DNA of 64,000 bases from Armatimonadetes bacterium UBA5352 (GTDB taxonomy: Bacteria; Armatimonadota; Zipacnadia; Zipacnadales; UBA5352), in NCBI GenBank assembly GCA_002411015.1, contig DHPY01000075.1, positions 28,307 to 92,306 of the forward strand, written 5' to 3'. The notes beneath the pieces were generated by a model. It did not search any database, was not told the DNA's origin, and saw only the letters and a program-made list of their open reading frames with translations. A program made the translations under genes and the position numbers. The number at the start of each line of letters is the position of its first letter. The first letter of the stretch is position 1. Of the stretch, positions 14,942 to 48,025 are shown piece after piece.

Positions 14942-14952
14942 GAGGAACCGCG

Positions 14953-15945
14953 ATGGTCACTGCCGAGCGGGTCAAGGAGGTCGCGCTCACGTGCGGCGCG
15001 GATATCGTCGGCATCGGCGATATGCAGCGCTTTGAGGGCGCGCCGCTGCAGAACGATCCGCGCTACATCTTCCCCGAGGCGAAGGCCATCATCGGCCTGG
15101 GCTTCCGCGTCCATCGCGGGCTGCTGCGCGGGATTGAGGAGGGCACCTACTTCGCGGGCTACCCGGCGATGGGCTACGCGAACATCAACGACGTGCACGC
15201 GCCGATGGTCATGCGGGAGCTTGGCGACTTCCTCGAGGACAACCGCTACGAGGCGGTGCTCTACCAGAACACCTCGATCCGCATCGGCTGCGGCGTCGGG
15301 ACGCCGGTGCATGAGGGCTACCCGAAGCCGGATGTGTTCCTGCACTTCCGGATCGCCGCGTATCTGTGCGGGATGGGCGAGATCGGCTGGAGCAAGGTCT
15401 TCCTGACACCGCGCTTCGGGCCGCGCCAGCGCTTCGCGTTCATCATCACCGACGCACCGCTGGAGCCCGATCCGCTGGTCGAGCCGGGGACGCTCTGCGA
15501 CCGCTGCATGCGCTGCGTCGCGGAGTGCCCGGGGAACGCGCTCAGCGCGGAGAAGTCGGTCAAGGTGACGCTTGGCGGGCAGGATGTCGAGTGGGGCGCG
15601 CTCGACGAGGACCGCTGCGCGGCGGTCTACCAGGTCGGCACCCGCGAGTACAGCCCGTTCCTGCCCGAGCACGTGGCTGAGTACATCGACACGCTGATGG
15701 CCGAGGAGAAGGGCGCGGAGCGCAGCCAGATGCTCTCGTATGCGGGCTCGGGCCCGTTCAGCTACGCGAACAAGGAAGTCCCGTGCTCGGCGAAGGCATG
15801 GGAGAGCTACCACCACCCCTCGGCGGTCTGCGGCAGCCGTGGCTGCATGCGCGCATGCATGATCCACCTCGAGGAACGCGGCGCGGTCGAGAACACCTTC
15901 GAGAACCGCTTCCGCATCCGCAAACCGTGGAAGCTCGACAGGTGA
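14953..15945 (+). CDS. Epoxyqueuosine-reductase (QueG)-like 4Fe-4S protein
   Basis: QueG-like N-terminus (VKEVALTCGADIVGIG). Ferredoxin motif CDRCMRCVAECPGNAL. RBS GAGAGGA before ATG 14953. Immediately follows the upstream stop. Confidence 0.5.
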   Translation: MVTAERVKEVALTCGADIVGIGDMQRFEGAPLQNDPRYIFPEAKAIIGLGFRVHRGLLRGIEEGTYFAGYPAMGYANINDVHAPMVMRELGDFLEDNRYEAVLYQNTSIRIGCGVGTPVHEGYPKPDVFLHFRIAAYLCGMGEIGWSKVFLTPRFGPRQRFAFIITDAPLEPDPLVEPGTLCDRCMRCVAECPGNALSAEKSVKVTLGGQDVEWGALDEDRCAAVYQVGTREYSPFLPEHVAEYIDTLMAEEKGAERSQMLSYAGSGPFSYANKEVPCSAKAWESYHHPSAVCGSRGCMRACMIHLEERGAVENTFENRFRIRKPWKLDR

Positions 15946-16023
15946 CGCGGTTGGTGCTTATTCCACTGGGGCGGCGCGCGATAGGATCGGGGGACTCAGG
16001 GGTGGAAGTCAGGTTCAGCGCAT

Positions 16024-16380
16024 CTACACGTCGCAGAGCGCGCTGATGTTCGAGTACCACCGGTTTCTTGCCTTGGCGACATCCGCCTCGGTGATCTGTG
16101 TCCCGGCTTCGTAGCGAGCCTGACGAGCCAACTGCTCCAGCGCGAGATACTCCCGGAGGATTAGGTTGAGATGCTGCGCAACCGCTTTTCTGCGCGCAGC
16201 GTGATCCGGGGGGTGAACGCCATGGTTTGCGAGTTTGGCATCCACTAAGTGCAGTGCGGCATAGTAGACTGCAATGGCTTCCCAGTCACAGAAATCCGCA
16301 GCATTCAGTGTATCCCGCACATGCCTGCTGAAAGCCTCGTCATGCTCTGCCTTCTGCGCGTGCTGGTTCCGGGTCGGCAT
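16024..16380 (-). CDS. HEPN-like domain protein (118 aa), third gene of the islet cassette
   Basis: All-helical pattern. Rx5H motif RKAVAQH near the C-terminal half, as in HEPN RNase motifs (Rx4-6H). Start 10 nt after the upstream gene stop. Confidence 0.4.
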   Translation of the reverse strand: MPTRNQHAQKAEHDEAFSRHVRDTLNAADFCDWEAIAVYYAALHLVDAKLANHGVHPPDHAARRKAVAQHLNLILREYLALEQLARQARYEAGTQITEADVAKARNRWYSNISALCDV

Positions 16381-16390
16381 CGGTTGCCCC

Positions 16391-16963
16391 CTATGATGAC
16401 TGCAGCCTGAAACTGGTGCCCCTCTGGCCCACAGTCACCTGTCGCGCCTCAGGGTCACCCTCGTGGGCAATGACAAACTCGGCGCGGAGGTCAGGGAAAA
16501 TGTCATAGAGAGCTGCGGCCCGACCGAACACATCCTCCCAGAGATCGAGGTCCCGCTCCTCGATCACAACAACTATCCGGACTTGACCTCCGTCGTCGAA
16601 CGCGCCCCCCCCAACCACTCGTGGCAGCCCGCCAAGCAGTCGCATCAGGTGCCCGGCGACGAGGCTGGGACTGGGATTACTGATCGTGCGGGGCACGAAG
16701 CTCGGCCATTGACTGCAGAGGTCAAGTTCGCTGTCTGCCGGGAACTCCAACGGAACGCACGGCGCGATGCGTTGGAGGGCAGACCAGCAGTCCGCCAAGT
16801 CCAAAGCCTGCTCCATGTCGTCCTCGTAGAACGCGGTCGCCCGTGGTGCACTGCCAGCCCGCTGTTCCGCGAGTGTGCAGAATACCATCTCCTTAGGCAA
16901 CCGAAGGGCATCTTGGAGGAAATCCAGCACGAGCGTCTCGTCCATGCGGTCAGCTATGTTCAT
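16391..16963 (-). CDS. Hypothetical protein B (190 aa), middle gene of the islet cassette; start ATG overlaps the upstream stop (ATGA)
   Basis: Minus-strand ATGA at plus 16960-16963 couples it to gene A. No recognisable motifs (G-rich stretch VVGGGAFDDGGQVRIVVVIEERDLD). The ORF track offers a longer version to 17029. Confidence 0.4.
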   Translation of the reverse strand: MNIADRMDETLVLDFLQDALRLPKEMVFCTLAEQRAGSAPRATAFYEDDMEQALDLADCWSALQRIAPCVPLEFPADSELDLCSQWPSFVPRTISNPSPSLVAGHLMRLLGGLPRVVGGGAFDDGGQVRIVVVIEERDLDLWEDVFGRAAALYDIFPDLRAEFVIAHEGDPEARQVTVGQRGTSFRLQSS

Positions 16964-17631
16964 CTTCCATGCGCTCCCTCTACCAGAGATCTCGCGACCT
17001 CTTCGGAAAACTCCCAGGTTCCGCGCCAACCAGCCAACGCCTCCACGACATCGGCCCGAGCGTTCTCACTGCCTGGAACGTGATGGAAGTTAAACTGACA
17101 CTGCAGAGCAGTCGTTGGTCCGTCACCATCCGTGTCCTGCTGGGGCTTGATCGTCAGATGGACGCGGAAGACACCAAATTCCCTCTCGACATAGCTGCCG
17201 AAAGCCGAGGAGGCGTCGGGGAAATGGGCGACGAGTGGTGACCCTTCAGGCAGGAACAGCGAGCGCAGGATGTCGGGGCTGAAGGCTTCTCCACCCTCCA
17301 TCCCGCATTCCCACACGCTGTTGATACCGGCACTAGTCGGGTTCACGTCCTGGGGCAGGGCCTTCACGAGAGCGCTCCCGATGGCCATCGCTCGGTCAAC
17401 CGCTGGCTCGCTTGCGTCGCGCGCCGTAACCTGCAGTCGGTCGTCCGTGACGAAGAGACTGATGAGATCTGTGCGAAGTGCAGCGACCACGGGGGCGAAG
17501 ATTTTGTTCTCCGCCTCCGCCAGTTCCGCAGGCGAAAACAGACCGTTTGACGCCAGCCAGAGGGCATCCAGACGAGCGGGGCGGAAGTCATTCGCCCTCA
17601 CCACGACGTTCGCGGACTTTGGCGCCAACAT
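16960..17631 (-). CDS. Hypothetical protein A (223 aa), first gene of the islet cassette
   Basis: Strong RBS GGGAGGA 7 nt upstream of ATG at 17631 (MLAPKSANVVV...). The longer ORF-track version starts at a TTG at 17682. No recognisable domain. Confidence 0.4.
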   Translation of the reverse strand: MLAPKSANVVVRANDFRPARLDALWLASNGLFSPAELAEAENKIFAPVVAALRTDLISLFVTDDRLQVTARDASEPAVDRAMAIGSALVKALPQDVNPTSAGINSVWECGMEGGEAFSPDILRSLFLPEGSPLVAHFPDASSAFGSYVEREFGVFRVHLTIKPQQDTDGDGPTTALQCQFNFHHVPGSENARADVVEALAGWRGTWEFSEEVARSLVEGAHGR

Positions 17632-17885
17632 CTCGGATCCTCCCGTTACACGTTCAGACGGACTGGATGCCGCCCGCACCAAGCGAGCGAGTGGTCTCTA
17701 TATCGGCGTCTTGAGCAGGGACTTCACTTGCGCTATCATTCGCGTTGTTCCTCGTGGAGTCCTCCACCGCAGCGTCATTATACGGAATGCGCCGACAGGA
17801 GCACAAGTCCATGGAGGCATTCGCCTGGGGCAAAGTGATAGTGTCCGCTTGCAGCAAAGTAGAGGTGTCCTCCTCTGAGCCCGCC

Positions 17886-20800
17886 TCACTCCAGCCCGAA
17901 GAGCTCCACCTCCCGCACCCACATCAGGTTCGGGCGGTCCGCTGAGCCGCCTCCGGCGGGCTGGGAGAGGCGGAAGCGATCGGAGGTCACCGGCTGGTCG
18001 AGGCGGAGCTCGCTTCGGGCCTCAGGCTCCTCGGGCCGCAGCGTGGTGATACTCCACCAGCCCTCGTCCACCGCCGCCTCCAGCGTCACCTCGCGTGAGG
18101 TGTGCGGCATCCCCCCGTCGAGGCTCCACCAGATCGCCGCGCTGCCGATCGTCACCGGGCGCTCGAAGCGTAGCTCGATCCAGTGCGGTGCGGCCGCATC
18201 CGCCGAAGCCCACGCCTCATCCGTCCAGTGCGCGTCCGCGGCAGGATACGCGATGCCATCGTTGATCGGCTCGGCGTCGTAGCCGCTGTAGGAGGAGTCG
18301 ACACTGACAGCCGCCTCGCGCGCGAGGTTGCCCTGCCGCCGCGGGTCCTCCATCACCGCCACGTCATCAAACCAGACGGTTCCCGCGCGATCGCGCAGCA
18401 GCAGGTAGACGTTCACGTTGCGGATCGGCTTCTCCGGCTCGATGATCAACTCGCCGATCTGCCACTGGTCGGTGTCGGTGGCGAGCTGATGGATACGCCC
18501 GTAGAGCGGCGTCCCGTCGGTGTAGTAGATGTCCACGTAGAGCGACCAGCCGCGATCCGGCGGCCCGGCGACCTCGCCCCTGCTGGCGGCACGAACGAGG
18601 ATCGGCGTCGGCCGCTCCTGGTTGAGCGTGATCGTCTGCGAGACCTCGCTTCTCTGCGCCCGGCTCTCGTTGCGCATGCGCACGGACGCCTCCCCGCCAT
18701 GCGCCACCTGCGTATCACGCTCGACCTGCCCGGTCGCGCTGGAGCCCCATGCGGTCAGTTCTTCCTCGAAGCCCGGGTTGCGCAGCAGGTTCGCCTCGGC
18801 CGGTATGAACAGCATCTGCGCGCTGTCGGTCGCGGTCGCATCCCCGGCGGTAGCGTTCGCGGTGATGGCCACCGATCCGGCCTCGGGGGTGCCCTCCGGC
18901 GCGACGAGCACGCTCAGGCGCTCCTCAGCGCCGGCGGCGAGGCTGACCTCGCGCGGTTCGGGCGCGGCCCAGCCATCGGGCGCATCGAGGCTGACCGTGG
19001 CCTCCACCGGGCGCGCGCGATGGTTGCGTACGCGCACCTCCACGCGGAACGCGCCGGTTGCGTCGTCGGTGCCTGCGGAGGCAAGCTGCAGCTCAAGCGG
19101 CGCCACGACCTCGACCTCGCGCGTCACGCGGATGGGCACTGCGGCATCGCGACCGCCGAGCAGCACCTCGCCCGTCAGCGCCAGCCTCTCGCCCACCGGC
19201 ACATCGGCAGGGACACGGAGCACGTAGGCGTCATCGACGCGCTGGACGGCCGCCGCCCCGGTTACGGTGACCGTGCTGCGCACCGGAAGCCCGCCCGTGT
19301 CGCCGACAGAGATGGCCACGGTCGCCTCGTCGCCGGCCGCGATGGTCGTGGGCGCGGTGAGCGTTGGCGCACCGATACCGAGGCGCGCCAGCAGTGCCTG
19401 CGCGACGTGCGCCTCCACGGCGTCGAGGTCGCGCAGCATCCGGCGCGCGGGGTTCTCCGCATCGGTCTCGGCGATCCACTCGCGGGTGGCCCCTGCGCGG
19501 GCGCCGATAGCCAGCAGCGCGTCGGGAGACCTGGACTGCTGCGCGGTGTCGATGGCGGCCAGGAGGCTGGCGGTCTCAGCGGTGAGCCGCACACGCTGCT
19601 CATCGCTCAGCGGATCGTACCAGCGCGCGAAGTCCGCGTTCTCCACGTAGTCGCTGCCGAATTCGTCCTCGATGGTGATCGAGGCGATCTTCAGCCGGCC
19701 GCTCACGCCGGCCTCCATCTCGGGCCGGAGGTTGATCGCCCGGAGCGGCTGTTCGGGCTCGAGCGTGAACTCAAGCTCCTGCCAGTCATACGTTCCCTTC
19801 GGCAGATCGAAGTTCGTGGTCTCGTAGTGCGTGAAGCTCTGGCTGACCCACGCGTGCCGGGCGGCGAGGCGCACGAAGCCATCGCCCTCCACGCCCTCGG
19901 CCGAAACGCGCACGCGTATCGTCACCGGCGCGGCCTGCGGCTGGAAGAGCATCGCCCACTGCCACGCGGCCTGCGTGCCGCGATCGATGCCATCGAGCAC
20001 CAGCGCCTGCCCCTCACGCGCGTAGCCCTCGGCGTCGCTGTGCCACGCGTAGGCGATCGCGGGGCGGCCCGTCTGCGCGTCGGCGTCGCGCATCACCTGG
20101 CCGAGCCGGACGATCTCAGCAGCCTGCGCCAGCCGCCACGCTGCCGCCTGCGCCGGTGCTGTCACCTGCAGCATCATGACGCCATCCGCCTCGACCTCAA
20201 TCTGCGCGGTAAGCTGCCCGTTCCGGCGCGCAAGCTCGATCGCGCTTCCTGAGAGCACATCCATGCAGCGAACATCGCGGCTGAGGCCGAGCGCGCGAGC
20301 ATCGATAGTGAGCGTCGTCGCATGGGGCTGCGCGTCCTCATTCAGGAGCGTCAGCCAGAGCACGCCATCCTCCCCCGGCCCGAAGCGCTCGACGAAGACG
20401 CTGTCGCTCGACGAGCGCGCCCACGTCAGAGGCTCCCAGCCCGCGGCGGCGAGGGTCTGCACGAGCGGCTGGTAGGTGAAGATCTCGCGGTCGCGCTCGT
20501 AGTACTCCGGATGGTCCCAGTAGCGCCCGCCGGGCCCGAGGCCGCTCGGCGGCCAGTCGAAGAAGCCCGGGAAGATGCCGTAGGCGAGGCAGCGCTTGTG
20601 GAAGAGCAGGATCTGCTCGTGGCCCATCTGCTGCTCGTAGTTGCCCTTCAGGAGAGTGAGGATCGGCTTGTGATGGGCGGTGCTGCGCAGGTAGTTCATC
20701 TGCTCGCGCGGGATGCGCAGGCTGGTCTCGCCGCCGAAGACGTCCAGCCACGGGGCCACGTAGAAGCTCGAGCCGAATGCGCCGTTCATCATCGTGATCT

Positions 20801-22199
20801 GCCCCTGCGGCCGGAGCTTCTCAGCCGCGGCGCGGGCGAACTCGCAGGAGGAGAAGAAGTTGTTGAGCACCGGCTTCTCCGCGATCGGGTCCCACATCGG
20901 GGGCGCGTCGGCCGTCGCGAAGTGCTCGGTGCGGTAGTTCAGGCCGGTCGAGAGACCGTCGTAGTAGAAGCCGTCGAGGCGGCCGCCGGTCTGCTCGAGG
21001 ATGCTCGCCGTGCGGCGGTCGGCCTCATCGAGCGTCCATGCGCCGTAGGCAAGCTCAGGATCGAGGTTGAACTGCGCGATAATGTGGCCGTAGACGCGCG
21101 CCGGGAGGATGTTGTAGAGGCCCTCCGGGGTGAAGAGGCCGACCGCTTCATAGACCCCCTCCTGCCGGGTGCGCGTGCGGAAGCTCTCGATCATCACCTC
21201 AAGCAGCCGCTCGTAGCGCGGCAGAGGGTCCACCTCAGGGTCGTGGCCGGGGATGTTCGCGAACTGCCCGGCATGCGTGAGGTAGATCGTGTCGAGCACC
21301 TCGATGAGATCGTCGTAGGCGACCTCAGGCGCGCCCTCCTGCAGCCCGAAACGGAACTCGTTCGCGTTGTCTATCTGCGAGAGCTTGCTGAAGGCCATCC
21401 ACTGCCCCGGCTGCGGCACGTAGACCTCGAAAAACTCGGGGTGAAGCTCGTAGTATCGCTGCACGGCGCTGCGGAAGCCCCAGTCGGCGTCGCAGGCATA
21501 CAGCTCGCACTCGAAGGTCCACTCGTTCGGCGGGACGGTGTCGGGCGAGAGCGCGAGGTCGTAGACGATCTGCAGCTGGCGCGTGTCGGGGTCGTATGCG
21601 GTGCGGAAGATGCATGGGCGGTCCATCGGCACCGCGAGACAGAGGCCGACGGGCCCGGTGAGGACCGTGCAGAAGTTGCGGTTCGAGGCGCCCACGCGCA
21701 GGGAGGGCTTGTCCGTCCACTCCGGGAGGTCCGGCCACTCACTCAGCTCGCGCACGTTCTCGTAGACGGTGCCGAGGCCGATCTCGCGGGCGGTCTGCAT
21801 GTCGTCATGCCAGCGCCAGCCGACCGCATCCACAGGGAGGTTCAGGCGCAGCAGCAGGCCCCGCGCGGGCAGATCTGCCTGACCCTGCAGGTGCGTGGTG
21901 ATGCGCAGGCGGCCGCCGACCTGCTCCACCGCGACCGCGGCTGAGGCATCGAGGCCGGGGAAGCTGTACGCGCCATCCGCCGCGAGCACTCCCGCGACGA
22001 ACTCACGGTCGCCGGTGACATCGGCAAGCTCCACCAGCGGACAGGCCTCGGCGGCGCCGATGACGCTCTGCCCGGCGACGGAGAGACCGGTGACGGTGCC
22101 GTCTGCACTGAGAGCCAACTCAATGGCGGACTCCTGCGCCCCGGCAGAAGCAGCGATGAAAAGCGAGAGCATCGCGACTGTGGTGAGCGATCTGAACAT
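17886..22199 (-). CDS. Giant secreted multi-domain carbohydrate-active protein (1437 aa): catalytic-like core plus CBM4/9-type module and C-terminal F5/8-type-C/discoidin-like module
   Basis: Signal peptide MFRSLTTVAMLSLFIAASAGAQ. CBM4_9-like NLLRNPGFEEELTAW...VWFDDVAV. C-terminal galactose-binding-like block. Long uninterrupted ORF. Confidence 0.5.
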   Translation of the reverse strand: MFRSLTTVAMLSLFIAASAGAQESAIELALSADGTVTGLSVAGQSVIGAAEACPLVELADVTGDREFVAGVLAADGAYSFPGLDASAAVAVEQVGGRLRITTHLQGQADLPARGLLLRLNLPVDAVGWRWHDDMQTAREIGLGTVYENVRELSEWPDLPEWTDKPSLRVGASNRNFCTVLTGPVGLCLAVPMDRPCIFRTAYDPDTRQLQIVYDLALSPDTVPPNEWTFECELYACDADWGFRSAVQRYYELHPEFFEVYVPQPGQWMAFSKLSQIDNANEFRFGLQEGAPEVAYDDLIEVLDTIYLTHAGQFANIPGHDPEVDPLPRYERLLEVMIESFRTRTRQEGVYEAVGLFTPEGLYNILPARVYGHIIAQFNLDPELAYGAWTLDEADRRTASILEQTGGRLDGFYYDGLSTGLNYRTEHFATADAPPMWDPIAEKPVLNNFFSSCEFARAAAEKLRPQGQITMMNGAFGSSFYVAPWLDVFGGETSLRIPREQMNYLRSTAHHKPILTLLKGNYEQQMGHEQILLFHKRCLAYGIFPGFFDWPPSGLGPGGRYWDHPEYYERDREIFTYQPLVQTLAAAGWEPLTWARSSSDSVFVERFGPGEDGVLWLTLLNEDAQPHATTLTIDARALGLSRDVRCMDVLSGSAIELARRNGQLTAQIEVEADGVMMLQVTAPAQAAAWRLAQAAEIVRLGQVMRDADAQTGRPAIAYAWHSDAEGYAREGQALVLDGIDRGTQAAWQWAMLFQPQAAPVTIRVRVSAEGVEGDGFVRLAARHAWVSQSFTHYETTNFDLPKGTYDWQELEFTLEPEQPLRAINLRPEMEAGVSGRLKIASITIEDEFGSDYVENADFARWYDPLSDEQRVRLTAETASLLAAIDTAQQSRSPDALLAIGARAGATREWIAETDAENPARRMLRDLDAVEAHVAQALLARLGIGAPTLTAPTTIAAGDEATVAISVGDTGGLPVRSTVTVTGAAAVQRVDDAYVLRVPADVPVGERLALTGEVLLGGRDAAVPIRVTREVEVVAPLELQLASAGTDDATGAFRVEVRVRNHRARPVEATVSLDAPDGWAAPEPREVSLAAGAEERLSVLVAPEGTPEAGSVAITANATAGDATATDSAQMLFIPAEANLLRNPGFEEELTAWGSSATGQVERDTQVAHGGEASVRMRNESRAQRSEVSQTITLNQERPTPILVRAASRGEVAGPPDRGWSLYVDIYYTDGTPLYGRIHQLATDTDQWQIGELIIEPEKPIRNVNVYLLLRDRAGTVWFDDVAVMEDPRRQGNLAREAAVSVDSSYSGYDAEPINDGIAYPAADAHWTDEAWASADAAAPHWIELRFERPVTIGSAAIWWSLDGGMPHTSREVTLEAAVDEGWWSITTLRPEEPEARSELRLDQPVTSDRFRLSQPAGGGSADRPNLMWVREVELFGLE

Positions 22200-22447: not shown

Positions 22448-23197
22448 ATGCTGACGAACAGGCCCCTGGAGAAGTTGCGCGCGGGAGAGCCGGCTTTCGG
22501 CCTCGCGATGGCGTCGAGTGATCCGCTGATCGCGGAGGTTATGGGCCGCGCGGGCGCGGACTGGGTCTGGATGGACGAGCAGCACGGCTCCTGGGATCGC
22601 GCGGCGATGTATCGCGCCATCCAGATCATCCAGCTTGCTGGTGCGACGGTCATCGTGCGCCCGGGCTCGAACGAGTTCTTCCGCATCGGCCGCGCTCTGG
22701 ACGCAGGCGCCCTGGGCGTGATCATCCCGATGGTGAACTCCGCAGAACACGCGAAGGCCGCCGTCTTCGCGGCGAAGTACCCGCCGCGCGGCGGGCGCTC
22801 TTCCGGTGGCGTTCGCCTGCGCTTCATGGGCAGCGATTACGCCTCCGCCGCGAACGACAACACCCTCGTGGCGGTGATGGTCGAGACGGCTGAGGCGCTC
22901 GGACGGGTGCCGGAGATCGCGGGCGTCGAGGGCGTGGACGCGATCTTCGTGGGCCCCGGCGACCTCAGCGTCTCCATGGGCGTCCCGCAGGGCTCCGACG
23001 AGCACGAGGAGGCGCTCCTGAAGATCCTCCGCGAGGCGAACGGTGTGGGGACGCCCGCAGGCATCGCCTGCGGCAATCCTGAGGATGCGCGCAAGCGGGC
23101 CGATCAGGGCTTCCAGCTCGTCACCGCGGGTTCCGAGAGCGGTATGATCTTCGCCGGAATCGCACACATGATGAAGACCGTCGGCCTGGCCGACTGA
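22448..23197 (+). CDS. HpcH/HpaI-family 2-keto-3-deoxy-sugar-acid aldolase
   Basis: Class II aldolase pattern: FGLAMASSDPLIAEVMGRAGADWVWMDEQHG, VIVRPGSNE, AVMVETAEAL, DAIFVGPGDLSVSMG. Confidence 0.75.
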   Translation: MLTNRPLEKLRAGEPAFGLAMASSDPLIAEVMGRAGADWVWMDEQHGSWDRAAMYRAIQIIQLAGATVIVRPGSNEFFRIGRALDAGALGVIIPMVNSAEHAKAAVFAAKYPPRGGRSSGGVRLRFMGSDYASAANDNTLVAVMVETAEALGRVPEIAGVEGVDAIFVGPGDLSVSMGVPQGSDEHEEALLKILREANGVGTPAGIACGNPEDARKRADQGFQLVTAGSESGMIFAGIAHMMKTVGLAD

Positions 23198-23211
23198 GAA
23201 AGGCGACGCGC

Positions 23212-24585
23212 GTGAACAGACCGAACATCCTGCTGATCGTGCTGGACTCAGCGCGAGCAGACAGATTCTCCTGCTACGGCTACACGAAGACCACCTCGCC
23301 GAACATCGACGCCATCGCCGAGACGGGCGCGGTCTTTGAGCGCTGCCAGAGCGAGGCGCCGTGGACGGTGCCCGCGAGCGTCTCGATGCTCACCGGCCTC
23401 GCGCCGCGCGAGCACGGCGCGGGCGAGCACCGGCAGCTCCCGGAGGGGATGCCTTCGCTGCAGGAGGCGCTCAGCGCGGGGGGCTACACGACGATCCTCG
23501 CGGGCGCGAACGGCTTCATCGGCCCGGTCACCGGCCTCGATCGGGGCTTCCAGGTGGTCAGCAACCCGCTGCATGTGAAGAACCTCTCGAAGCCGCTGAC
23601 GGTCTTCATCACGCGGCCGATGGGGTGGCAGGACAGCTTCGGCGGGGCGATCACCCACAGGCTCATCCGGGAGATCGAGCGCGCGCAGGCACCGTGGTTC
23701 GCGACGATCTGGTATAACGAGACGCACCACCCGTACATGGGCCGCGAACCCTTCAGCACGAGGTTCGCGGAGCGGCCGATGTCGCTCGCGCGGCGCTGGC
23801 GCCTCATGTCGCGGATGCGGCACATGAACGAACTCGCCGCCACGGCCGACACCGAGGAATGGCGCGACGTCCACGCGCTCTACGACGGCGCGCTCGGCTA
23901 CAACGACCACCTCATCGGCCGGTTGCAGTCGGCGCTGAGCGCGATAGGGGCGTGGGAGAACACGATAGTCGTCATCACCGGTGACCACGGCGACCTCCTC
24001 GGGGAGCACGGTCTCGCAGGGCATCGCTGGGCGGTCGGGCTCTACCGGGAGGTCACGCATGTGCCGCTGATCGTGCGCCTGCCGGGGGGCGAGCTTGCGG
24101 GCGCGCGTTCCGACGCGCTGGTGCAGCTTGGAGACATCCCGCACACCCTCGCGGCGATCTGCGGATGCTCCGAGGCACTCGCCCACACGGCCGCGACCCC
24201 GGTGGATCTGCGCGAGGCGGCCGGCGGCTCCGGGCGGGAGTTCGCGGTCTCTGAGCGTGAGGTGATCGACCCCCAGCGCCTGGCGCGCGAGAAGCGCAAG
24301 AACCCGAGCTTCGACTACGCGCCGCACATGGGCTCGATGGCGCTCATCAACGACGGCGCGTGGGAGTACATCCGCTGGGAGACCGCGCGCGACGAGCTGT
24401 TCAGCGCCGACGACCGGCAGCAGGCGACAAACCTGATTGATGAGCGGCCGGAGATCGCCCGGCGGCTGAGCGCGGCCCTCGATGACTGGCAGGCTCGCGT
24501 GCGGCCACACTCCTCCACCACCGGCGTGGAGCTGGAGGAGGACGAGGAGACGCGCAAGCGCCTCGAAGGCCTCGGCTACTTCTAA
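23212..24585 (+). CDS. Sulfatase-family (alkaline-phosphatase superfamily) protein lacking the canonical formylglycine C/S-x-P-x-R motif; W-T-V-P-A-S at that position; GTG start
   Basis: ILLIVLDSARADRF N-terminal metal-binding Asp. GDHGD motif (VVITGDHGDLLGEHG). Motif position reads SEAPWTVPASVSMLTG instead of C/S-x-P-x-R. Confidence 0.7.
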   Translation: MNRPNILLIVLDSARADRFSCYGYTKTTSPNIDAIAETGAVFERCQSEAPWTVPASVSMLTGLAPREHGAGEHRQLPEGMPSLQEALSAGGYTTILAGANGFIGPVTGLDRGFQVVSNPLHVKNLSKPLTVFITRPMGWQDSFGGAITHRLIREIERAQAPWFATIWYNETHHPYMGREPFSTRFAERPMSLARRWRLMSRMRHMNELAATADTEEWRDVHALYDGALGYNDHLIGRLQSALSAIGAWENTIVVITGDHGDLLGEHGLAGHRWAVGLYREVTHVPLIVRLPGGELAGARSDALVQLGDIPHTLAAICGCSEALAHTAATPVDLREAAGGSGREFAVSEREVIDPQRLAREKRKNPSFDYAPHMGSMALINDGAWEYIRWETARDELFSADDRQQATNLIDERPEIARRLSAALDDWQARVRPHSSTTGVELEEDEETRKRLEGLGYF

Positions 24586-24602
24586 CCACTGGAGGCAACA
24601 TA

Positions 24603-25976
24603 TTGGACGCGCCGAACATCCTGCTGGTCGTGCTCGATTCGGCTCGGGCCGACCGGTTTTCGTGCTACGGCTATCAGAAGCCGACCACGCCGAACATCGA
24701 CCGCATGGCGGATGAGGGCGCCCTGTTCACGCAGTGCTGGAGCGAGTCGAACTGGACGCTGCCGGTCAGCTACACGCTGATGACCGGCCTCGCGCCACGC
24801 GAGCACCGCTCAGAGGCCTACCGCGACCTCCCCGGCGGCCTGCCGACGCTGCCGCGCGCGCTGGAGACGAGCGAGTGGTTCACGGTCCTCGCCTCCGCGA
24901 ACGCGTTCCTCGGCATGGCAACGGGGATGCACCACGCATTCGACGCGTTCGAGCTGCCGCGCTTCGACCACCCGCTGCTCAAGCCGATCATGAAGTACGT
25001 GCTCCTGCGCCTCGCGCTCGTGGACAAGGGTGGCGCGGACCTCAACCGCGCGATGCTCAGGCAGATCGCGCGCCAAGAGACGCCGTGGTTCGGCGTCATC
25101 TGGACGGACGATGTGCATCACCCGTGGGTCGGAAAGGGCGAGTTTGCCTCGAAGTTCGCCGACCGCCCGATCTCGCTGGCGCGGCGCTGGAGCGTGCTCG
25201 AGCGCGCGCGGCGGCTGCAGGAGTTCGTCGCGACCGGCTCGGAGCGGGACCTGCAGGACCTCAACGCCCTCTACGACGGCTGCGTGGGCTACGCGGACCA
25301 CCTCGTGGGGGAGCTGCGGTCTGTGCTGGAGGCGACGGGGCGCTGGGAGGACACGCTGCTGATCATCGCGGCCGATCACGGTGACATGCTCGGCGAGCAC
25401 CGCCTCGCCGGCCACGGACAGCCCGCCGGTATGTACCGCCAGCTCATCCGCGTGCCGCTGATCGTGCATGGGCCGGGCTTCCCCTCGGGCGTGCGCAGTG
25501 ATGCTACCGTGCAGCTTGCTGATGTGACGCAGACGGTCGGTGAGATCACCGGCGCCCTTCCGCGCCTTGCGCCGACGGCGGCGCGGCGGGTGGACCTGCG
25601 CGATGCAGCGACGGGGGCGGGGCGGGAGTTCGCGATCTGCGAGCGGGCGGCATGGCCCGCGAATCGGCTTAAGAAGGCGCAAAAGCAGAACCCGAGTTTC
25701 GATTACTCGCCGATGGTGGGCGAGATCCGGTCATGCTATCGCGATGGCTGGCACCTGATAGACGCTGCGACGGGCAGGCGCGAACTCTTCGACACGCTTA
25801 GCGACCCCGAGGAGATGAGCAACCTCCTCGCGCAGGAGCCGGAGGTTGCGCGCGAGCTGCTGGCGATCCTCGACGACTGGCGCGCGAAGGCCCGCCCGCA
25901 TCCGGCGACCGATGGCCTCATCGAGCGCGAGGACCCGGAGGTCGAGGCGCGCCTGCGCGGTATGGGCTATTTCTGA
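24603..25976 (+). CDS. Sulfatase-family paralog (tandem duplicate of 23212-24585), also lacking C/S-x-P-x-R (NWTLPVSYTLMTG); TTG start
   Basis: Same length (457 aa). Colinear similarity to the upstream paralog, e.g. NILLVVLDSARADRFSCYGY, AADHGDMLGEHRLAGHG, C-terminal ...GMGYF. GGAGG RBS 8 nt upstream of TTG. Confidence 0.7.
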   Translation: MDAPNILLVVLDSARADRFSCYGYQKPTTPNIDRMADEGALFTQCWSESNWTLPVSYTLMTGLAPREHRSEAYRDLPGGLPTLPRALETSEWFTVLASANAFLGMATGMHHAFDAFELPRFDHPLLKPIMKYVLLRLALVDKGGADLNRAMLRQIARQETPWFGVIWTDDVHHPWVGKGEFASKFADRPISLARRWSVLERARRLQEFVATGSERDLQDLNALYDGCVGYADHLVGELRSVLEATGRWEDTLLIIAADHGDMLGEHRLAGHGQPAGMYRQLIRVPLIVHGPGFPSGVRSDATVQLADVTQTVGEITGALPRLAPTAARRVDLRDAATGAGREFAICERAAWPANRLKKAQKQNPSFDYSPMVGEIRSCYRDGWHLIDAATGRRELFDTLSDPEEMSNLLAQEPEVARELLAILDDWRAKARPHPATDGLIEREDPEVEARLRGMGYF

Positions 25977-26080: not shown

Positions 26081-26110
26081 GTCCCCCATTCACCCTTCAC
26101 CCCTCACCAT
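26081..26110 (+). repeat. Copy 2 of REP-like motif (CATTCACCCTTCACCCCTCACC)
   Basis: Core TTCACCCTTCACC identical to the copy at 1588-1600. Confidence 0.5.
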
Positions 26111-29069
26111 CCACAGGTATCCTCAGGTCCTCCGGCCGCAGCGCCAGGTAGCCGTAGAAGCCATCCTCGAAGTAGAGGCTCGCATCCGAGCCGAAGGTCC
26201 CCCAGGTCCGCTCAGGGGCCATCGTGTACTCGATCCGCCAGATGCCCTCCGCGCCCTCGACAACCGGGATGTCCAGTTCCATGTAGATCGCGCCAGGCAG
26301 CTTCGGCTCGGTGTCCATGCGCAGATCGGGATCGTAGACGAGCGCGCCCGTCTCGCCCTGCAGGTCCACCACCAGCTCGCCCCGCGCGTCCCAGACGCGG
26401 CAGACACAGCCCTTGTCGCGCGTTTGCAGCCGCAGCGGCACGCTCTCGGTGCCCTCTGGCACGTGGAAGTACATCGGCGGCGTACTGCCGGCGAAGTGCA
26501 GGCGCTGGCCGTTGTGTGCGGGGATCAGCAGCGCCGCACCATCGGCCTCGATGGTGAAGCACTCCCCGCCCGCGTCCACTCCGACCGCGGTCATGCCCGG
26601 GTCGGTCAGCGTCAGGCTCGCAGGCGTGCCATCCGCGCCGGTGGCTGCCGGGTCGAGCAGCCGTCCGGTTACGGGCGCAGCGGCCCAGAGGAGTGCCTGC
26701 TTCCCTTCGCCCAGCCACGGCACGACCTTAGCGGTCACGGTAGCCGTCTGCCCCGGCTCAATGATCGCTCCGAAGTGGTGGCTGTAGCGCAGCACGAGCG
26801 GCGTCGCGCTGGCAGGCGCCTCCGCCATCGGCCCCTCCACTGGCGCCAACGCGACCTCCTCCATGGCATAGACAGGCAGGGTGCTCTCCCCGGCGGTGAG
26901 CGCTGCGCGCGCCTCTGCCATCGGGGGCCCCTCAGCGGCGCCATTTGCCAGAGCGAGCCGCACGATCGAGAGCATCTGGACCTCCGGCAGCGTGAAGCGG
27001 ACGCCGCCGTCCATCGGAGCGACCTCCAGTGCCTGCCCGGACTCATCGCCGGGCGCGATCCACTCGGCCGAGACGGCGTGCGTGCCATCAGGCACAGGGC
27101 AGATCACCTCGACATCGCGCTGCGTATGCACCTGGCCCTCGCTCGCGATTCGGTAGGCCCTCCCGTCGTCCTCGATCGTGAAGTCCACGTTGTAGTTGAT
27201 GAGGTTCACCAGCATTTCGTCACCGGCGGTGCGACGCGCGCTGATGACGACCCCCGGCGCGTTGATGCAGCCGAAGCGCTCGAGCGCCAGCGGGTCGCTC
27301 TCGGTCGCCGCCAGCACGTCATACAGGGGGCCCTTGTACTTGCCGCCGTACATCATCGAGAGCGCGGGCTTGAAGTAGCTCTGGGTGAACTCCCCGGCCA
27401 TCTCGGCCCCGAAGAGCGGCGCCTCGCGCAGAGTGCCGGCTCCGGTCATATCGCCGGAGGGGCCGGTCACGATGAGCCTGCCACCGGCATCGGCATATGC
27501 GCGCAGCAGCGCCGCCTGCTCATCGGTGATGATCCGCGGCGAGGGCAGGATGATCGTGTCATAGCGCGCCAGGCGTTCGGGCGTGCAGTTCGCGGAGATG
27601 ACGTAGTCGTGCAGCACCCCGCGGCTCTGGAGGGCGCGGCGGGCGGTCTCAAACTCTCGCACGCTGTCGGCGACTTGACTGTAATCGAGGTAGAGGTCGT
27701 CATACTGCACGAAGAGGGCGACGTCGGCGATACTCTCGCCGGTGCGGGTCCAGTCGCGGTGCGTGCGCAGCCAGCCAAAGAGCCGCTCGCGCGCGGGGTT
27801 GCGGCGCATCACGTTGATATCCGCGCCATCAATGAAAACTCCATCGAGCGCCAGCGCCTGGCAGAACGCAAGCTCATACTGCTTCTGGTGGTGCGGGCGG
27901 GAGATCGAGTCGGGGCGCACGCCCGGCCAGGTGACGGCATCGAGCGCGTGGACCATCTTGTGATCGGTCACCTGCTCGTCCATGGAGTTCCACGAGACGC
28001 CGGGCAGGATCGGCATCTGCCAGTTTCCGACGTAGTGGTAGCGCTTCTCCATGAAGGTGATGTCCTGCCCGTTCTCCGCCCATGGGACGAGCCCGAGCCC
28101 GACATCGGTCGGCTTGAAGACGCTCCAGGTGCCGTTCGCGCAGAGGAAGAAGTTGCCCTCACCGCGCGCCTGCTCGCCACCGTCCTTGATCGCGCCGAGG
28201 AACGCGCCCACGCTCTCAGCGCGGAAGCGCCTCGTGTCGAAGGCCCACTTCGCGTCCTCAAGCACACACTCAGCGTAGTCGTTCACGCCGAAGTACGCTC
28301 GCAGGTCGTCAGGCGTGTACCGCTCGCGCAGGTAGCGCTGCCACTCGCGCTGGCAGTCGGGGCAGGTGCATGAGTTGCCGGGGTTGTCAACGAAGATGCC
28401 GGTATAGCCCTCCATCGCGCAGTAGTTGGCCAGAGCGCGGTGATAGGTGCGCCAGGCGGGGTCGTTCACGCAGCCCGCGTAGACCTGGTTGCCGAAGGCA
28501 TCCACGCCCCAGTACGAGCCCAGGTACTTCTTCCCGCCGCGTAGCTGGATCCAGTCCCACGGCTCCTCCGCGGGCTTCTCACCGAGCAGCGGCATGATCC
28601 CGCGGAACTCGTCCCAGTTGTCGTAGAGGGTGTACATCCCTGAGCGATTCTCGGGGGTGAGCGCGAGCTTCACCGCGCAGACGTAGCGGCAGTACTCGTT
28701 GATGCCGAGGTCGCGCCACGACTGCAGCTGTGCCGTGACCTTCGGGCGGTAGTCATTGAGTATCTCGGCGGTGATGCGCTGATCCTGCGTCCAGCCCCAG
28801 TTGTGGCTGAGCGGGGCCTGATCGTAGGCGCGGTAGTTGATATCGGGGACGGCGGCGCCAAGGGCCTCCATGTAGCCCGGCCAGCCCTCGGCGGCGCCCG
28901 CCTCGTTGAACGGGTGAGGCGGGTCCACCTGCGCGGCAACCCAGGCGTCATCATCCTCAGGGTGGTGCACGTACATGAAGACGAAGGTCCTCGGGGGCTC
29001 ATCGAGGTCGGCAAAGACGGGGGCGATGCCGGCGGACAGGAGCAGGAGGATGGCGATCAGCCTGCGCAT
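26097..29069 (-). CDS. Secreted putative glycoside hydrolase (990 aa) with GH42-type beta-galactosidase trimerisation (class-I glutamine-amidotransferase-like) domain
   Basis: Signal peptide MRRLIAILLLLSAGIAPVFA. Block RYDTIILPSPRIITDEQAALLRAYADAGGRLIVTGP typical of the GH42 A4 middle domain. RBS GGAGG 7 nt upstream of ATG at 29069. Confidence 0.5.
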   Translation of the reverse strand: MRRLIAILLLLSAGIAPVFADLDEPPRTFVFMYVHHPEDDDAWVAAQVDPPHPFNEAGAAEGWPGYMEALGAAVPDINYRAYDQAPLSHNWGWTQDQRITAEILNDYRPKVTAQLQSWRDLGINEYCRYVCAVKLALTPENRSGMYTLYDNWDEFRGIMPLLGEKPAEEPWDWIQLRGGKKYLGSYWGVDAFGNQVYAGCVNDPAWRTYHRALANYCAMEGYTGIFVDNPGNSCTCPDCQREWQRYLRERYTPDDLRAYFGVNDYAECVLEDAKWAFDTRRFRAESVGAFLGAIKDGGEQARGEGNFFLCANGTWSVFKPTDVGLGLVPWAENGQDITFMEKRYHYVGNWQMPILPGVSWNSMDEQVTDHKMVHALDAVTWPGVRPDSISRPHHQKQYELAFCQALALDGVFIDGADINVMRRNPARERLFGWLRTHRDWTRTGESIADVALFVQYDDLYLDYSQVADSVREFETARRALQSRGVLHDYVISANCTPERLARYDTIILPSPRIITDEQAALLRAYADAGGRLIVTGPSGDMTGAGTLREAPLFGAEMAGEFTQSYFKPALSMMYGGKYKGPLYDVLAATESDPLALERFGCINAPGVVISARRTAGDEMLVNLINYNVDFTIEDDGRAYRIASEGQVHTQRDVEVICPVPDGTHAVSAEWIAPGDESGQALEVAPMDGGVRFTLPEVQMLSIVRLALANGAAEGPPMAEARAALTAGESTLPVYAMEEVALAPVEGPMAEAPASATPLVLRYSHHFGAIIEPGQTATVTAKVVPWLGEGKQALLWAAAPVTGRLLDPAATGADGTPASLTLTDPGMTAVGVDAGGECFTIEADGAALLIPAHNGQRLHFAGSTPPMYFHVPEGTESVPLRLQTRDKGCVCRVWDARGELVVDLQGETGALVYDPDLRMDTEPKLPGAIYMELDIPVVEGAEGIWRIEYTMAPERTWGTFGSDASLYFEDGFYGYLALRPEDLRIPVDGEG

Positions 29070-29134: not shown

Positions 29135-30436
29135 CTACTTCGCCGCGATTGGCTCCTCGTCGGCGTCTTCGGACGTCCGTTCAACCTCCAGGTGCCCCTT
29201 CGGGCGCACGAAGAGCGCAATGAGCAGAGCGCAGATGAGCTGGAGGATGCCCATGACAATGAACGGGAGCCGCATGCCCATCCCGGAGGCCATGAAGCCG
29301 CCGACGAGAGGGCCGAGGGCGAATCCGAGGCACATTGCGGATGTCGTGATGCCGAAGGTGCGCCCGAGAGTGTCCGGGGAGACGCTTGCGCCGATCATCG
29401 CGTTCATTGCGGGCCCGCCGCCGCCGGCGATCAGGCCCCAGCCGACCCGCAGGCCGAAGAGCTGCCCGATGCTCTGCGCGAAGGCATGCGGGATGCTGAA
29501 GAACGCCGAGCCCGCGTTGGCGACGACAAGCACCCGCCGATGGCCGATGCGGTCGGCGAGCCGCCCGACGACGATGCAGGCAAGGCCCGAGGCAATGCCG
29601 CCGACAGCCATGAGCTGACCGGTGACTGTGGCAGCGCGATCGGTCTGCGCGATCTGCTCCACGAAAAGCGGGAAGATCGGACCGACGAACGTGACCGCGA
29701 ACGCGGAGAGGAAGAATGCGCTCAGCAGGGCCGCCAGCCCGCCTCTGCCGAAGACCTCGCGCAGGCCGTGGTTGCCGTTGCCGCGCTCCTCCGGCCGCAC
29801 ACGCTGCTCGGTCGTGAAGAAGAGCACAACGAAGCCGGAGATAGCCCAGAGGGCGCCGCAGACGAAGAAGGGGATACGGTAGCCGTAGGTATCAGCGACG
29901 ACGCCGCCCATCCACGGCCCGGCGGCGTTACCCACGATCAGGCCGGTCTGCAGCAGCCCCATGGCGGCTCCAAGGTGCTTGCGCGGCGTGACCGAGGCGA
30001 CCATCGTATTGCAGGCCGAGCCGGTGCCGGTGAGGGCGCCCTGCATGAACCGGAAGATCACAAGCTGCCAGATGGTCTGGGAGAAGCCCATGAGGGCGAT
30101 GGTGATCGCGCCGCCGAACATTGCGCGCTGGAGCATCAGCTTGCGCCCGTAGCGGTCTGCGAGACTCCCCCAGATCGGCTGGAAGATCGTGAGGCTCATC
30201 CCGGCGGCGAACATTGCCACTCCGGAGTAGGAGCTGACCATACGCTCGTCGGCAACGCCGAGATCGCGCACGAAGAGGGGCAGAAAGGGCATCACAAATG
30301 AGAAGCCGACAGCAGCCAGCAGGTTCGCGAACCAGACCGCCCAAAGGGTACGACGCCAGTGGGGATCGATGACTTCATCAGCCTGTCCGCAGGCCGGTGG
30401 CTGTGATGTCTGCTGCAAGTGTTCGGTCGCCATCAC
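29135..30436 (-). CDS. MFS transporter (DHA1/Bcr-like 12-TM family)
   Basis: MFS signature region GSLADRYGRK, 12 hydrophobic segments, typical length (433 aa). Confidence 0.85.
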   Translation of the reverse strand: MMATEHLQQTSQPPACGQADEVIDPHWRRTLWAVWFANLLAAVGFSFVMPFLPLFVRDLGVADERMVSSYSGVAMFAAGMSLTIFQPIWGSLADRYGRKLMLQRAMFGGAITIALMGFSQTIWQLVIFRFMQGALTGTGSACNTMVASVTPRKHLGAAMGLLQTGLIVGNAAGPWMGGVVADTYGYRIPFFVCGALWAISGFVVLFFTTEQRVRPEERGNGNHGLREVFGRGGLAALLSAFFLSAFAVTFVGPIFPLFVEQIAQTDRAATVTGQLMAVGGIASGLACIVVGRLADRIGHRRVLVVANAGSAFFSIPHAFAQSIGQLFGLRVGWGLIAGGGGPAMNAMIGASVSPDTLGRTFGITTSAMCLGFALGPLVGGFMASGMGMRLPFIVMGILQLICALLIALFVRPKGHLEVERTSEDADEEPIAAK

Positions 30437-37691: not shown

Positions 37692-38084
37692 CTAGTAGCT
37701 GGCGGCCCGGGCTACGCCGCTAGGCGCGCACTTCTCACACAGCAGCAGCGAGCGGTTCCAGCATCGGTCGCAGATCCATTCGCCGCACTGCGGGCACTGA
37801 TGGAAGTGCTCCCCCACCTGGGTTGACGCCGCCCGCAGCGCTGCATCGTGCTCGAACTGCGCGGCATCATCGGCAGGCTCAGAATCGCCATCCGTCGCCT
37901 CGCGCAGGATCTGGCCCACGCTGTCGATGAAGCCGTTCGCGTCCTCATGCAGCCGGGGCTGACAGTCGCTCTCGTAGGCGCTGTCGCAGCGCTCGCAGTA
38001 GAACCTGAAGCGGAAGCTCTTCTCGTCACTCACGTCCTCGTAACCGCCGAACTCGATCGCGACCAACGTGTCCGCCAAGGTCAT
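37692..38084 (-). CDS. Double-zinc-ribbon-like small protein (130 aa), paralog of 39220-39846; last gene of a three-gene operon
   Basis: Shared N-domain with the paralog: F-[RK]-F-[RK]-FYCERC...HFHQC-[PS]-[QR]-CGEW-[IL]-CD-[RV]-CWN-x-S-x-x-LCE-[KR]-CAP. Cys spacing C-x2-C-x4-C-x2-C-x7-C-x2-C. Confidence 0.5.
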   Translation of the reverse strand: MTLADTLVAIEFGGYEDVSDEKSFRFRFYCERCDSAYESDCQPRLHEDANGFIDSVGQILREATDGDSEPADDAAQFEHDAALRAASTQVGEHFHQCPQCGEWICDRCWNRSLLLCEKCAPSGVARAASY

Positions 38085-47106: not shown

Positions 47107-47910
47107 TCAGTCGTCGCCAGCCGCCGCGATGGCCTCCTCATCTTCCCTGCATTCAGCCTTCGCCGGTCGCCGCCTCAGCTGACGCGCCCCAGCTTTGCAG
47201 ACCCGACGACGTGCGTTCTCGGCCTCATCCCCCTCAAGGGTCTCACGCCGTAGCACTTCCTGAACGAGCTTCTCTCGTATCTCGTCGGTGTCCACCTTCA
47301 CGTCCGGGTTTACACGGCGCATCTCCCGCCGAATTGCCTTCAGTACTTCATCCGAGACAACAATGGCGGCAATCAGGTGACGGCTCGTCGCCTCATGATG
47401 GCAGACGAAGTCGTCGAGCACGTTCTTCTCGATGCCCTCGCGTGTCAACAGATAAAGAAGCTCCTGACAACCGCTCTGATTGGCAGAGATCTCCAACAGA
47501 TCAATCTCAGCTACCTGTCGAGCCTCAATCGGCTTCCCGAAAATCACCTGATAGACGCGCCACTTGACCCCGTTTGTCAGAATGACCCACTCGACGCCCT
47601 GGTTGGCTGCGTAGTCCAGCGCCTGCCTTATGTGGGTGTCTCTGAAGTCAGTGCCGATGGCTTTGATCTCGATGACGATGCGGATGACATCGGCAATCTT
47701 AATGACCAAATCGCAGTAGGTACCCCGAATTGAGTACTCTGAGGTGATCTCGGTGTACTTGTCGTACCCGAAGAGGTCGGCCAGCACGTCGGTCACTATC
47801 ACCACGGTATCCGACTCGTTGCAGTCCCGGGCGCGAGCGGAGTTCAGGATGGGCTGGTACTGCTTCAACGCCGCTGTCATGCGCTGTGCGACTCTTGCAG
47901 GTATCGCCAT
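47107..47910 (-). CDS. Standalone restriction-endonuclease-fold (PD-(D/E)xK) protein resembling the type I restriction HsdR N-terminal nuclease domain (HSDR_N-like); lower-GC islet gene
   Basis: ITSEYSIRGTYCDLVIKIADVIRIVIEIKAIG carries the D...E-x-K catalytic pattern. Strong RBS GGGAGGG 7 nt upstream of ATG 47910. Visibly lower GC (about 52-55%). Charged C-terminal tail. Confidence 0.5.
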   Translation of the reverse strand: MAIPARVAQRMTAALKQYQPILNSARARDCNESDTVVIVTDVLADLFGYDKYTEITSEYSIRGTYCDLVIKIADVIRIVIEIKAIGTDFRDTHIRQALDYAANQGVEWVILTNGVKWRVYQVIFGKPIEARQVAEIDLLEISANQSGCQELLYLLTREGIEKNVLDDFVCHHEATSRHLIAAIVVSDEVLKAIRREMRRVNPDVKVDTDEIREKLVQEVLRRETLEGDEAENARRRVCKAGARQLRRRPAKAECREDEEAIAAAGDD

Positions 47911-48025
47911 GGAATGACCCTCCCGCAGCATGCGTCTGTACGTTCGTACGACGCAAGTCAGCGGAGGGTTCCCATTCTTGTCGTATATACCTCCATTGTG
48001 TTCCGCCCCCCGCCCAAAAAAGAAC

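Follow-up and report, generated by a model that had tools for sequence, protein, structure and literature searches.

What do proteins of the sulfatase family do when the residue that would be converted into the catalytic formylglycine (FGly) is absent? This question is raised by two adjacent genes of Armatimonadetes bacterium UBA5352 (GenBank assembly GCA_002411015.1). They lie in a stretch of 64,000 nucleotides of contig DHPY01000075.1 (positions 28,307 to 92,306, forward strand), which is called the window below and to which all coordinates refer. Paralog A (23212..24585, + strand, GTG start) and paralog B (24603..25976, + strand, TTG start) each encode a putative cytoplasmic Thr-type sulfatase-like protein of 457 residues. 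An earlier note had described two adjacent, duplicated genes with a sulfatase N-terminal block and metal site but without the C/S-x-P-x-R motif. The open reading frames (ORFs) were found as described, and the proteins are 47% identical over their full length (BLASTP E = 2e-158), which confirmed the duplication. The explanation that we consider moderately probable as a whole is that A and B encode active, soluble, cytoplasmic, metal-dependent enzymes that would transfer an ester group by means of a Thr residue. They would constitute an accessory module that immediately follows a class II pyruvate aldolase within a gene island of Armatimonadota, and would have arisen by lineage-specific duplication.

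PF00884 covers A and B over their full length (E = 6.7e-42 and 1e-38, respectively), and the N-terminal block was recovered as LDSARADR at residues 11-18 of both paralogs. The relatives of A and B in a collection of 5.8 billion proteins form a clade of 37 clusters (39-94% identity, all approximately 457 residues), beyond which the next matches drop sharply to approximately 31% identity. The named sources of the clade members are Armatimonadota. The members have been named 'sulfatase-like hydrolase/transferase' by NCBI (one member) and 'arylsulfatase A-like enzyme' by JGI. The orthogroup of A (P0001-P0009) shows 67-94% identity, and that of B (P0017-P0026 and P0031) has a mean identity of 77%.

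In both proteins, Thr occupies the position of FGly. When A is aligned with the FGly enzyme 4uph by HMMER, FGly-S-P-A-R falls exactly on T52-V-P-A-S56 of A, which places Thr52 at the FGly position and Ser56 at the Arg position (W51 to S56, WTVPAS, 23362..23379, +). According to the sequence and the clade alignment, the same segment of B is W51-T52-L-P-V-S56 (WTLPVS, 24753..24770, +). A and B contain no C/S-x-P-x-R anywhere, and the clade members also lack it in their first 150 residues. The sole [CS]-x-A-x-R strings, at S191 in both paralogs and at S70 in B, are far outside the active-site register.

In an alignment of 38 clade sequences (39-94% identical), D12, S13, R15, D17, W51, T52, P54, N100, H172, P174, D258, H259, E265, and H271 are invariant. 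We mapped its columns onto the mutationally validated active site of the Enterococcus arylsulfatase EfAS, which comprises D20, Q21, C61, R65, K110, H112, H220, D311, H312, and K324 (PMC12421950). In this alignment, the clade retains the metal ligands and the leaving-group His, while its nucleophile position is Thr. The equivalents of R65, K110, and K324 are S/A/G/C/M at position 56, A/G at position 99, and an invariant His at position 271, respectively, and the equivalent of H112 is a variable residue. Asp12 of A (23245..23247, +) is a predicted metal ligand and aligns with EfAS D20. The other predicted ligands are D258 and H259. Residues 258-271 read DHGDLLGEHGLAGH in A (23983..24024, +) and DHGDMLGEHRLAGH in B (25374..25415, +; clade alignment and sequence), and H271 replaces the Lys that lies 12 residues past the metal His in sulfatases and phosphonate monoester hydrolases (PMHs). 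H172 of A (H172-H-P174, 23725..23733, +) aligns with the leaving-group His of the same enzymes. The metal-site strings GDHGD and LGEHG quoted in the earlier note were present; however, B reads LGEHR instead of LGEHG.

These results bear on the possibility that A and B are canonical FGly sulfatases in which the Cys/Ser motif is displaced or generated elsewhere. We consider this extremely unlikely. All 38 sequences have Thr at the aligned position, and the Arg, Lys/His, and Lys that bind sulfate are missing. A displaced motif was ruled out by its absence from both proteins. Oxidation of Thr would yield a ketone, not FGly (PMC5066984). Furthermore, no FGly-generating enzyme (FGE), anaerobic sulfatase-maturating enzyme (anSME), radical S-adenosylmethionine protein, or CxPxR sulfatase was found among the window ORFs. 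The in-register Thr, the loss of the cationic sulfatase residues, and the absence of FGE and anSME from the window support the view that 'arylsulfatase' is a mis-annotation.

Active-site states were tallied across 118 aligned sequences (116 database hits and the two window proteins). T52 and H271 occurred together in 100 sequences, and C52, R56, and K271 in 11. Judging from this tally, Thr52/His271 and Cys52/Arg56/Lys271 are mutually exclusive states among the relatives, and the former is an alternative active-site design, not decay. Two sequences, P0084 and P0096, combine Thr at the nucleophile position with the Arg (+4) and Lys271 of the FGly type, and K-W-H is kept as well in P0096; both resemble intermediates between these states.

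An alternative is that A and B are inactive pseudoenzymes or binding proteins, namely, ex-sulfatases without FGly that only bind a ligand, as PbgA/YejM does in its fold family. This is very unlikely, because the 38 clade sequences, with identities as low as 39%, and thousands of relatives show no variation at the four metal/nucleophile positions or at either His. Both paralogs keep the set, and this conservation pattern is typical of catalysis. The AF2 model of A has a pLDDT of 89 and a pTM of 0.91. The N-termini of the pair are the same as in homologs of 455-462 residues, and G+C at third codon positions in the reading frame is approximately 0.9.

The comparison of the clade profile with Escherichia coli EptA using hhalign gave a probability of 95.9% (E = 6e-9). 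In it, D12 is matched by the metal Glu of EptA, H172 by the GSHGP His, D258-H259 by DHG, and H271 by the YLHG His. We take the aligned His pair to be H395 and H478 of MCR-1. This correspondence suggests that the catalytic constellation is that of Thr-type phospho-alcohol transferases. Together with the invariance of Thr52 and its covariation with His271, it agrees with the previous assignment of the paralogs to the Thr-position enzymes of the alkaline phosphatase superfamily rather than to canonical sulfatases.

The same alignment speaks for an alternative that we regard as a considerable possibility, if not a probable one. A and B may be phosphodiester or phosphonate-monoester hydrolases, or phospho-alcohol transferases, that form a Thr52 phospho-enzyme as in EptA/MCR-1, LtaS, OpgB, and the nucleotide pyrophosphatases/phosphodiesterases (NPPs). 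They would process, in the cytoplasm and ahead of aldol cleavage, a soluble sugar or sugar acid with a phospho decoration. Besides the shared catalytic set (D/E, Thr, D-H, His, and His), this alternative is supported by an NPP-type N-terminal signature in A and B and by a Foldseek search, in which PMHs were the best matches of the fold and S1 sulfatases were also close. The loss of the Lys/His pair of FGly arylsulfatases continues a trend already present in PMHs, and hydrolysis by way of Thr is chemically easy with phosphorus, but difficult with sulfur. To our knowledge, every biochemically characterized Thr-type PF00884 enzyme transfers phospho-alcohol, which we also count in favor of the phosphorus alternative. 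However, a membrane anchor, an extracytoplasmic location, and lipid donors characterize the Thr-type phosphotransferases known so far. In A and B, the domain begins at residue 4, the maximum 19-residue hydropathy is 1.1, and neither a signal peptide nor a membrane segment was predicted. Moreover, the similarity to EptA is remote and partial. Proteins from haloarchaeal glycan clusters are much closer, with approximately 30% identity over the full length and E values down to 1e-36 to 1e-50. Genes for phosphate or phosphonate metabolism were also not found in the window operon.

Within the ester-group-transfer explanation, a mechanism may be outlined. Asp12, Asp258, and His259 would hold a divalent metal that activates the Thr52 hydroxyl. 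Thr52 would attack the S or P of a mono-anionic sugar ester to give a covalent Thr-O-X intermediate, the leaving group would be protonated by His172 as the general acid, and His271, in the place of the sulfatase Lys, would hold the transferred group. X may then be handed to water or to a sugar hydroxyl. A and B probably form a heterodimer or act on two different positions. By analogy with Agl30 and Agl31, which are sulfotransferases, we lean slightly, and tentatively, toward sulfate as X. A substituted phosphate, handled by EptA/LtaS-type chemistry, is nearly as likely because of the precedent of EptA, LtaS, NPP, and PMH and because phosphorus is easier for a Thr nucleophile.

Sulfo-ester chemistry is a serious possibility because the probable relatives Agl30 (VNG1056C) and Agl31 (VNG1057C) of Halobacterium salinarum are sulfatase-fold glycan sulfotransferases (PMC11980604). 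Similar to A and B, they belong to the alkaline phosphatase superfamily, and 6HHM was a top structural match for both pairs (PMC11980604 and our search). Agl31 is soluble and cytosolic, as is predicted for A and B, and Agl30 and Agl31 are also an adjacent paralog pair. The published primers encode the termini MAGNLRG...HLEDLGYL and MAESGSD...LEELGYT, and the C-termini HLEDLGYL and LEELGYT indicate that both proteins carry the L-x-x-L-G-Y tail of the family described below. In contrast, the agl30 and agl31 genes are located in the aglB N-glycosylation cluster of an archaeon, whereas A and B, from an Armatimonadota clade, follow an aldolase in an operon without a glycosyltransferase; only locus L004 of the clade has glycosyltransferase neighbors. 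Haloarchaeal relatives of the window protein (26-31% identity) have Thr/Ser with His271 and tails of the form ...DLGY[LVI]. They adjoin a Wzx-type flippase, GT87, GT1/GT4, and GT2 glycosyltransferases, and a second paralog, and thus lie in glycan-biosynthesis clusters. The Agl tails, these clusters, and the L004 gene between a GT2 and a PMT_2 glycosyltransferase lean slightly toward sulfuryl chemistry. We also entertain, with more doubt, the wider proposal that A, B, and the whole L-G-Y-tail branch are FGly-independent sulfuryl-transfer enzymes with a metal-activated Thr, that is, bacterial counterparts of Agl30 and Agl31.

This branch became apparent when the clade profile was searched against 1.84 billion cluster representatives, which gave 160,805 matches at E <= 1e-3 and 33,369 at E <= 1e-30. 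Among the best 148 representatives (50% clusters), the nucleophile position was Thr/Ser in all, mostly as T-x-P-x-H, and CxPxR was found in none. The domain started within 12 residues of the N-terminus in 85 of 105 representatives, and 89 of 93 short representatives ended in L-x-x-[LM]-G-Y. The L-x-x-L-G-Y tail closed 56 of 100 Thr-type hits and none of 11 CxPxR-type hits. L451, G455, and Y456 are invariant in the clade alignment. The tail of A ends in G-L-G-Y-F (24568..24582, +), in a region modeled as disordered (pLDDT < 50, residues 443-457), and that of B (25959..25973, +) is of the family form L-x-x-[LM]-G-Y-[FYLIV]. We define the soluble Thr/His L-G-Y-tail branch of PF00884 by Thr/Ser52, His172, His271, the D-H metal site, a length of approximately 460 residues, and the C-terminal L-x-x-L-G-Y. 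A and B have all of these features and, on this evidence, belong to the branch.

More than 12 natural fusions of two complete Thr-type domains were present among the representatives. In approximately 60 outgroup genome loci, the commonest immediate neighbor was a superfamily member (10 PF01663 and 6 PF00884), followed by tetratricopeptide repeat proteins and glycosyltransferases. Tandem or fused pairs thus appear to be a habit of the family, which fits A and B working together. The fused proteins (P0243-P0257, P0270, P0280, P0311, and P0383) are 900-1550 residues long and have two or sometimes more Thr-type domains, many with signal peptides. Each domain is closed by the L-x-x-[LM]-G-Y-[FYLIV] tail, which could be a docking or oligomerization motif. 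Thr occurs in 30 of the 59 Pfam seed sequences of PF00884, and such proteins cannot be assumed to be sulfatases (SulfAtlas, PMC5066984). Our literature search for a characterized soluble Thr-type PF00884 enzyme yielded only this remark and the Agl30/Agl31 paper. The replacement of Cys by Thr was already known, and the novelty lies in an uncharacterized subfamily and its possible kinship with sulfotransferases.

The genomic context links the pair to an aldolase. An HpcH/HpaI class II pyruvate aldolase of 249 residues (22448..23197, +; PF03328 E = 1e-30) is the probable first gene of the operon, and its stop is 14 nucleotides from the start of A. Reading the sequence, we found a Shine-Dalgarno GAAAGG (23198..23203, +) 8 nucleotides ahead of the GTG of A and a GGAGG (24591..24595, +) 7 nucleotides ahead of the TTG of B. 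These sites and the gaps of 14-17 nucleotides fit one operon, aldolase-A-B. The best NCBIfam matches of the aldolase (HpaI, GarL, and RhmA) were all below their cut-offs, and its PDB matches were HpaI, YfaU, and GarL at approximately 1e-33. Of the 10 distinct clade loci, 8 (the window, L001/L002, L003, L004, L005, L006, L007, and L009) have an ortholog of the aldolase immediately upstream of the sulfatase-like gene. The order A then B is kept in L001/L002 and L005, while other genomes have a single copy that is about as far from A as from B.

The clade of the aldolase exceeds that of the sulfatase-like proteins in size. In L088 and L089/L090, the same island consists of a PcRGLX-like protein of approximately 1440 residues, a 330-residue Fe-S protein, a divergent secreted protein of approximately 1440 residues, and the aldolase, followed by a convergent major facilitator superfamily (MFS) transporter, a 400-residue protein, GNAT, and GH20. 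Since this island exists without the sulfatase-like gene, the latter is an accessory insertion between the aldolase and MFS genes. In L004, the insertion comprises GT2, the sulfatase-like gene, and PMT_2. The aldolase was absent from 75 outgroup genome loci and from the immediate neighbors of the outgroup genes, which ruled out aldolase linkage as a feature of the wider family.

Several points weigh against the explanation that we favor. Two clade loci, L008 and L091 (the latter being the only clade locus that a second metagenome scan added), have the sulfatase-like gene without the aldolase, and L088 and L089/L090 have the converse arrangement. Obligate co-travel of the two genes was thereby ruled out, and, since they occur separately, a shared pathway is not proven. 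Neither a glycosyltransferase nor a gene for the synthesis of 3'-phosphoadenosine 5'-phosphosulfate was found in the window operon. In the EptA comparison, the nucleophile Thr residues are offset from each other by 5 residues, and the active-site geometry and metal number proposed above derive from alignments. The hydrolysis of a sulfo-threonine intermediate is chemically unfavorable, which speaks against a sulfatase, but not against a transferase, based on Thr. The kinship of the clade with Agl30 and Agl31 is no more than likely, judging from the tails and the haloarchaeal relatives; a search of metagenome contigs for the Agl sequences with the exact primers gave no match, and neither did a composite probe of primer-derived termini and motifs. 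Furthermore, the assignment of Agl30 and Agl31 is based on genetics and heterologous expression and did not identify the donor (PMC11980604).

The surroundings of the operon were also compared. The earlier note had placed the pair in a rhamnogalacturonan/fucoside locus. A PL11 rhamnogalacturonan lyase and a GH29 fucosidase do exist in the window; however, they are 23-28 kb away, and the conserved linkage is with the aldolase and two proteins of approximately 1440 residues. One of these, a secreted protein of 1437 residues (17886..22199, -) with only a weak C-terminal discoidin match, is divergent from the aldolase and part of the syntenic block. Its orthologs (53-70% identity) adjoin the aldolase in L003, L004, L006, L007, L009, and L089/L090. 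The other is the PcRGLX-like, lyase-like protein of 1439 residues. It is always directly followed by the Fe-S gene (L002, L003, L005, and L089), the start of which overlaps its stop, and this pairing is unusual for a polysaccharide lyase. In the window, the Fe-S protein (14938-15945, 335 residues) has a 4Fe-4S dicluster and weakly resembles reductive dehalogenase and QueG. Between this gene and the 1437-residue gene is a 1.9-kb stretch (15945-17886) with a G+C content of 0.615, against approximately 0.68, which is missing from L003, where the flanking genes directly adjoin each other. Three small ORFs lie on the minus strand of this stretch, one of which weakly matches HEPN (E = 0.007), and the stretch may be a small mobile or defense insertion.

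On the other side of the pair, a secreted protein of 990 residues (26097-29069, -) has only a weak match to a GH42 trimerization domain. No counterpart was found in any related locus, which suggests a window-specific insertion beside A and B. The conserved MFS transporter of the island (29135-30436, -) is nearer to exporters of the drug/H+ antiporter type (MdtG, Tet, and FslB) than to sugar importers; therefore, the island is not clearly catabolic. In L086/L087 (7001-14744), a member of the aldolase clade (55% identity) is beside three genes of the N-acylglucosamine 2-epimerase (AGE) family, an arrangement that resembles nanL-nanE-nanT of sialic-acid catabolism. This analogy hints at a 2-keto-3-deoxy sugar acid as the aldolase substrate, and the position of the aldolase next to the AGE epimerases in L086 prompts the speculation of a catabolic role of the Kdo (3-deoxy-D-manno-oct-2-ulosonic acid) or sialic-acid type. 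Elsewhere in the window, we noted a bacterial eRF1-like protein (baeRF family 3/7; 1619-2782, -), a DUF6785/DUF6784 membrane protein after an ATP-binding cassette transporter (5019-7007, +), a prokaryotic RING-finger family 2 ORF (37692-38084, -), and an HSDR_N-like ORF of 325 residues in a region of low G+C at third codon positions (47107-48084, -).

Surveys of genomes and metagenomes tally PF00884 hits as sulfatases and infer from them a capacity to degrade sulfated glycans. Since CxPxR was not found in the 148 closest representatives and the profile has 33,369 matches at E <= 1e-30, the branch would inflate such counts. If the link to Agl30 and Agl31 is true, these proteins add sulfate rather than remove it, and the counts would have the opposite meaning. 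The sulfuryl-transfer reading, if true, would apply to thousands of bacterial and archaeal genes currently annotated as sulfatases. The Armatimonadota pair is a compact test system for this chemistry because the proteins are soluble, the operon partner is defined, and nature provides versions with one gene as well as with two.

A and B were also compared with other systems of the superfamily. NPPs (PF01663) share with A and B the N-terminal signature D-x-x-R-x-D ... T-x-P ... T-G-x-x-P-x-x-H-G and a Thr nucleophile. However, they have a full-length PF01663 domain with a bimetallo site, whereas this model matches only the first 60 or so residues of A and B (E = 3e-11). The S1 carbohydrate sulfatases (6hr5 of S1_25, 6hhm of S1_7, and others) are secreted or periplasmic, FGly-dependent enzymes with a sulfate-binding Lys/His, and A and B have none of these characteristics. 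EptA/MCR-1, EptC, LtaS/LtaP, OpgB, and GacH have an N-terminal multi-pass membrane domain, act outside the cytoplasm, and use lipid donors, in contrast to the predicted soluble, cytoplasmic A and B. According to the EptA alignment, these Thr-type phospho-alcohol transferases share with A and B the acidic and D-H metal site and the two catalytic His residues. The similarity is nevertheless remote. Their nucleophile motif is G-T-x-T, while that of A and B is W-T-x-P, and they lack the extra C-terminal sulfatase/PMH subdomain of A and B.

The best sequence and Foldseek matches of A and B are in the PMH/arylsulfatase group (4uph, 4upi, 4upl, 2vqr, 2w8s, and EfAS 9koq) and choline sulfatase. In these enzymes, FGly is derived from C-x-P-x-R, and Arg and the Lys 12 residues after the metal His are present, whereas A and B have Thr52, a variable residue 56, and His271. 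The enzymes of the PMH/arylsulfatase group are soluble and oligomeric, in which they resemble A and B, and they share with them the two-subdomain fold, the D...D-H metal site, and the leaving-group His.

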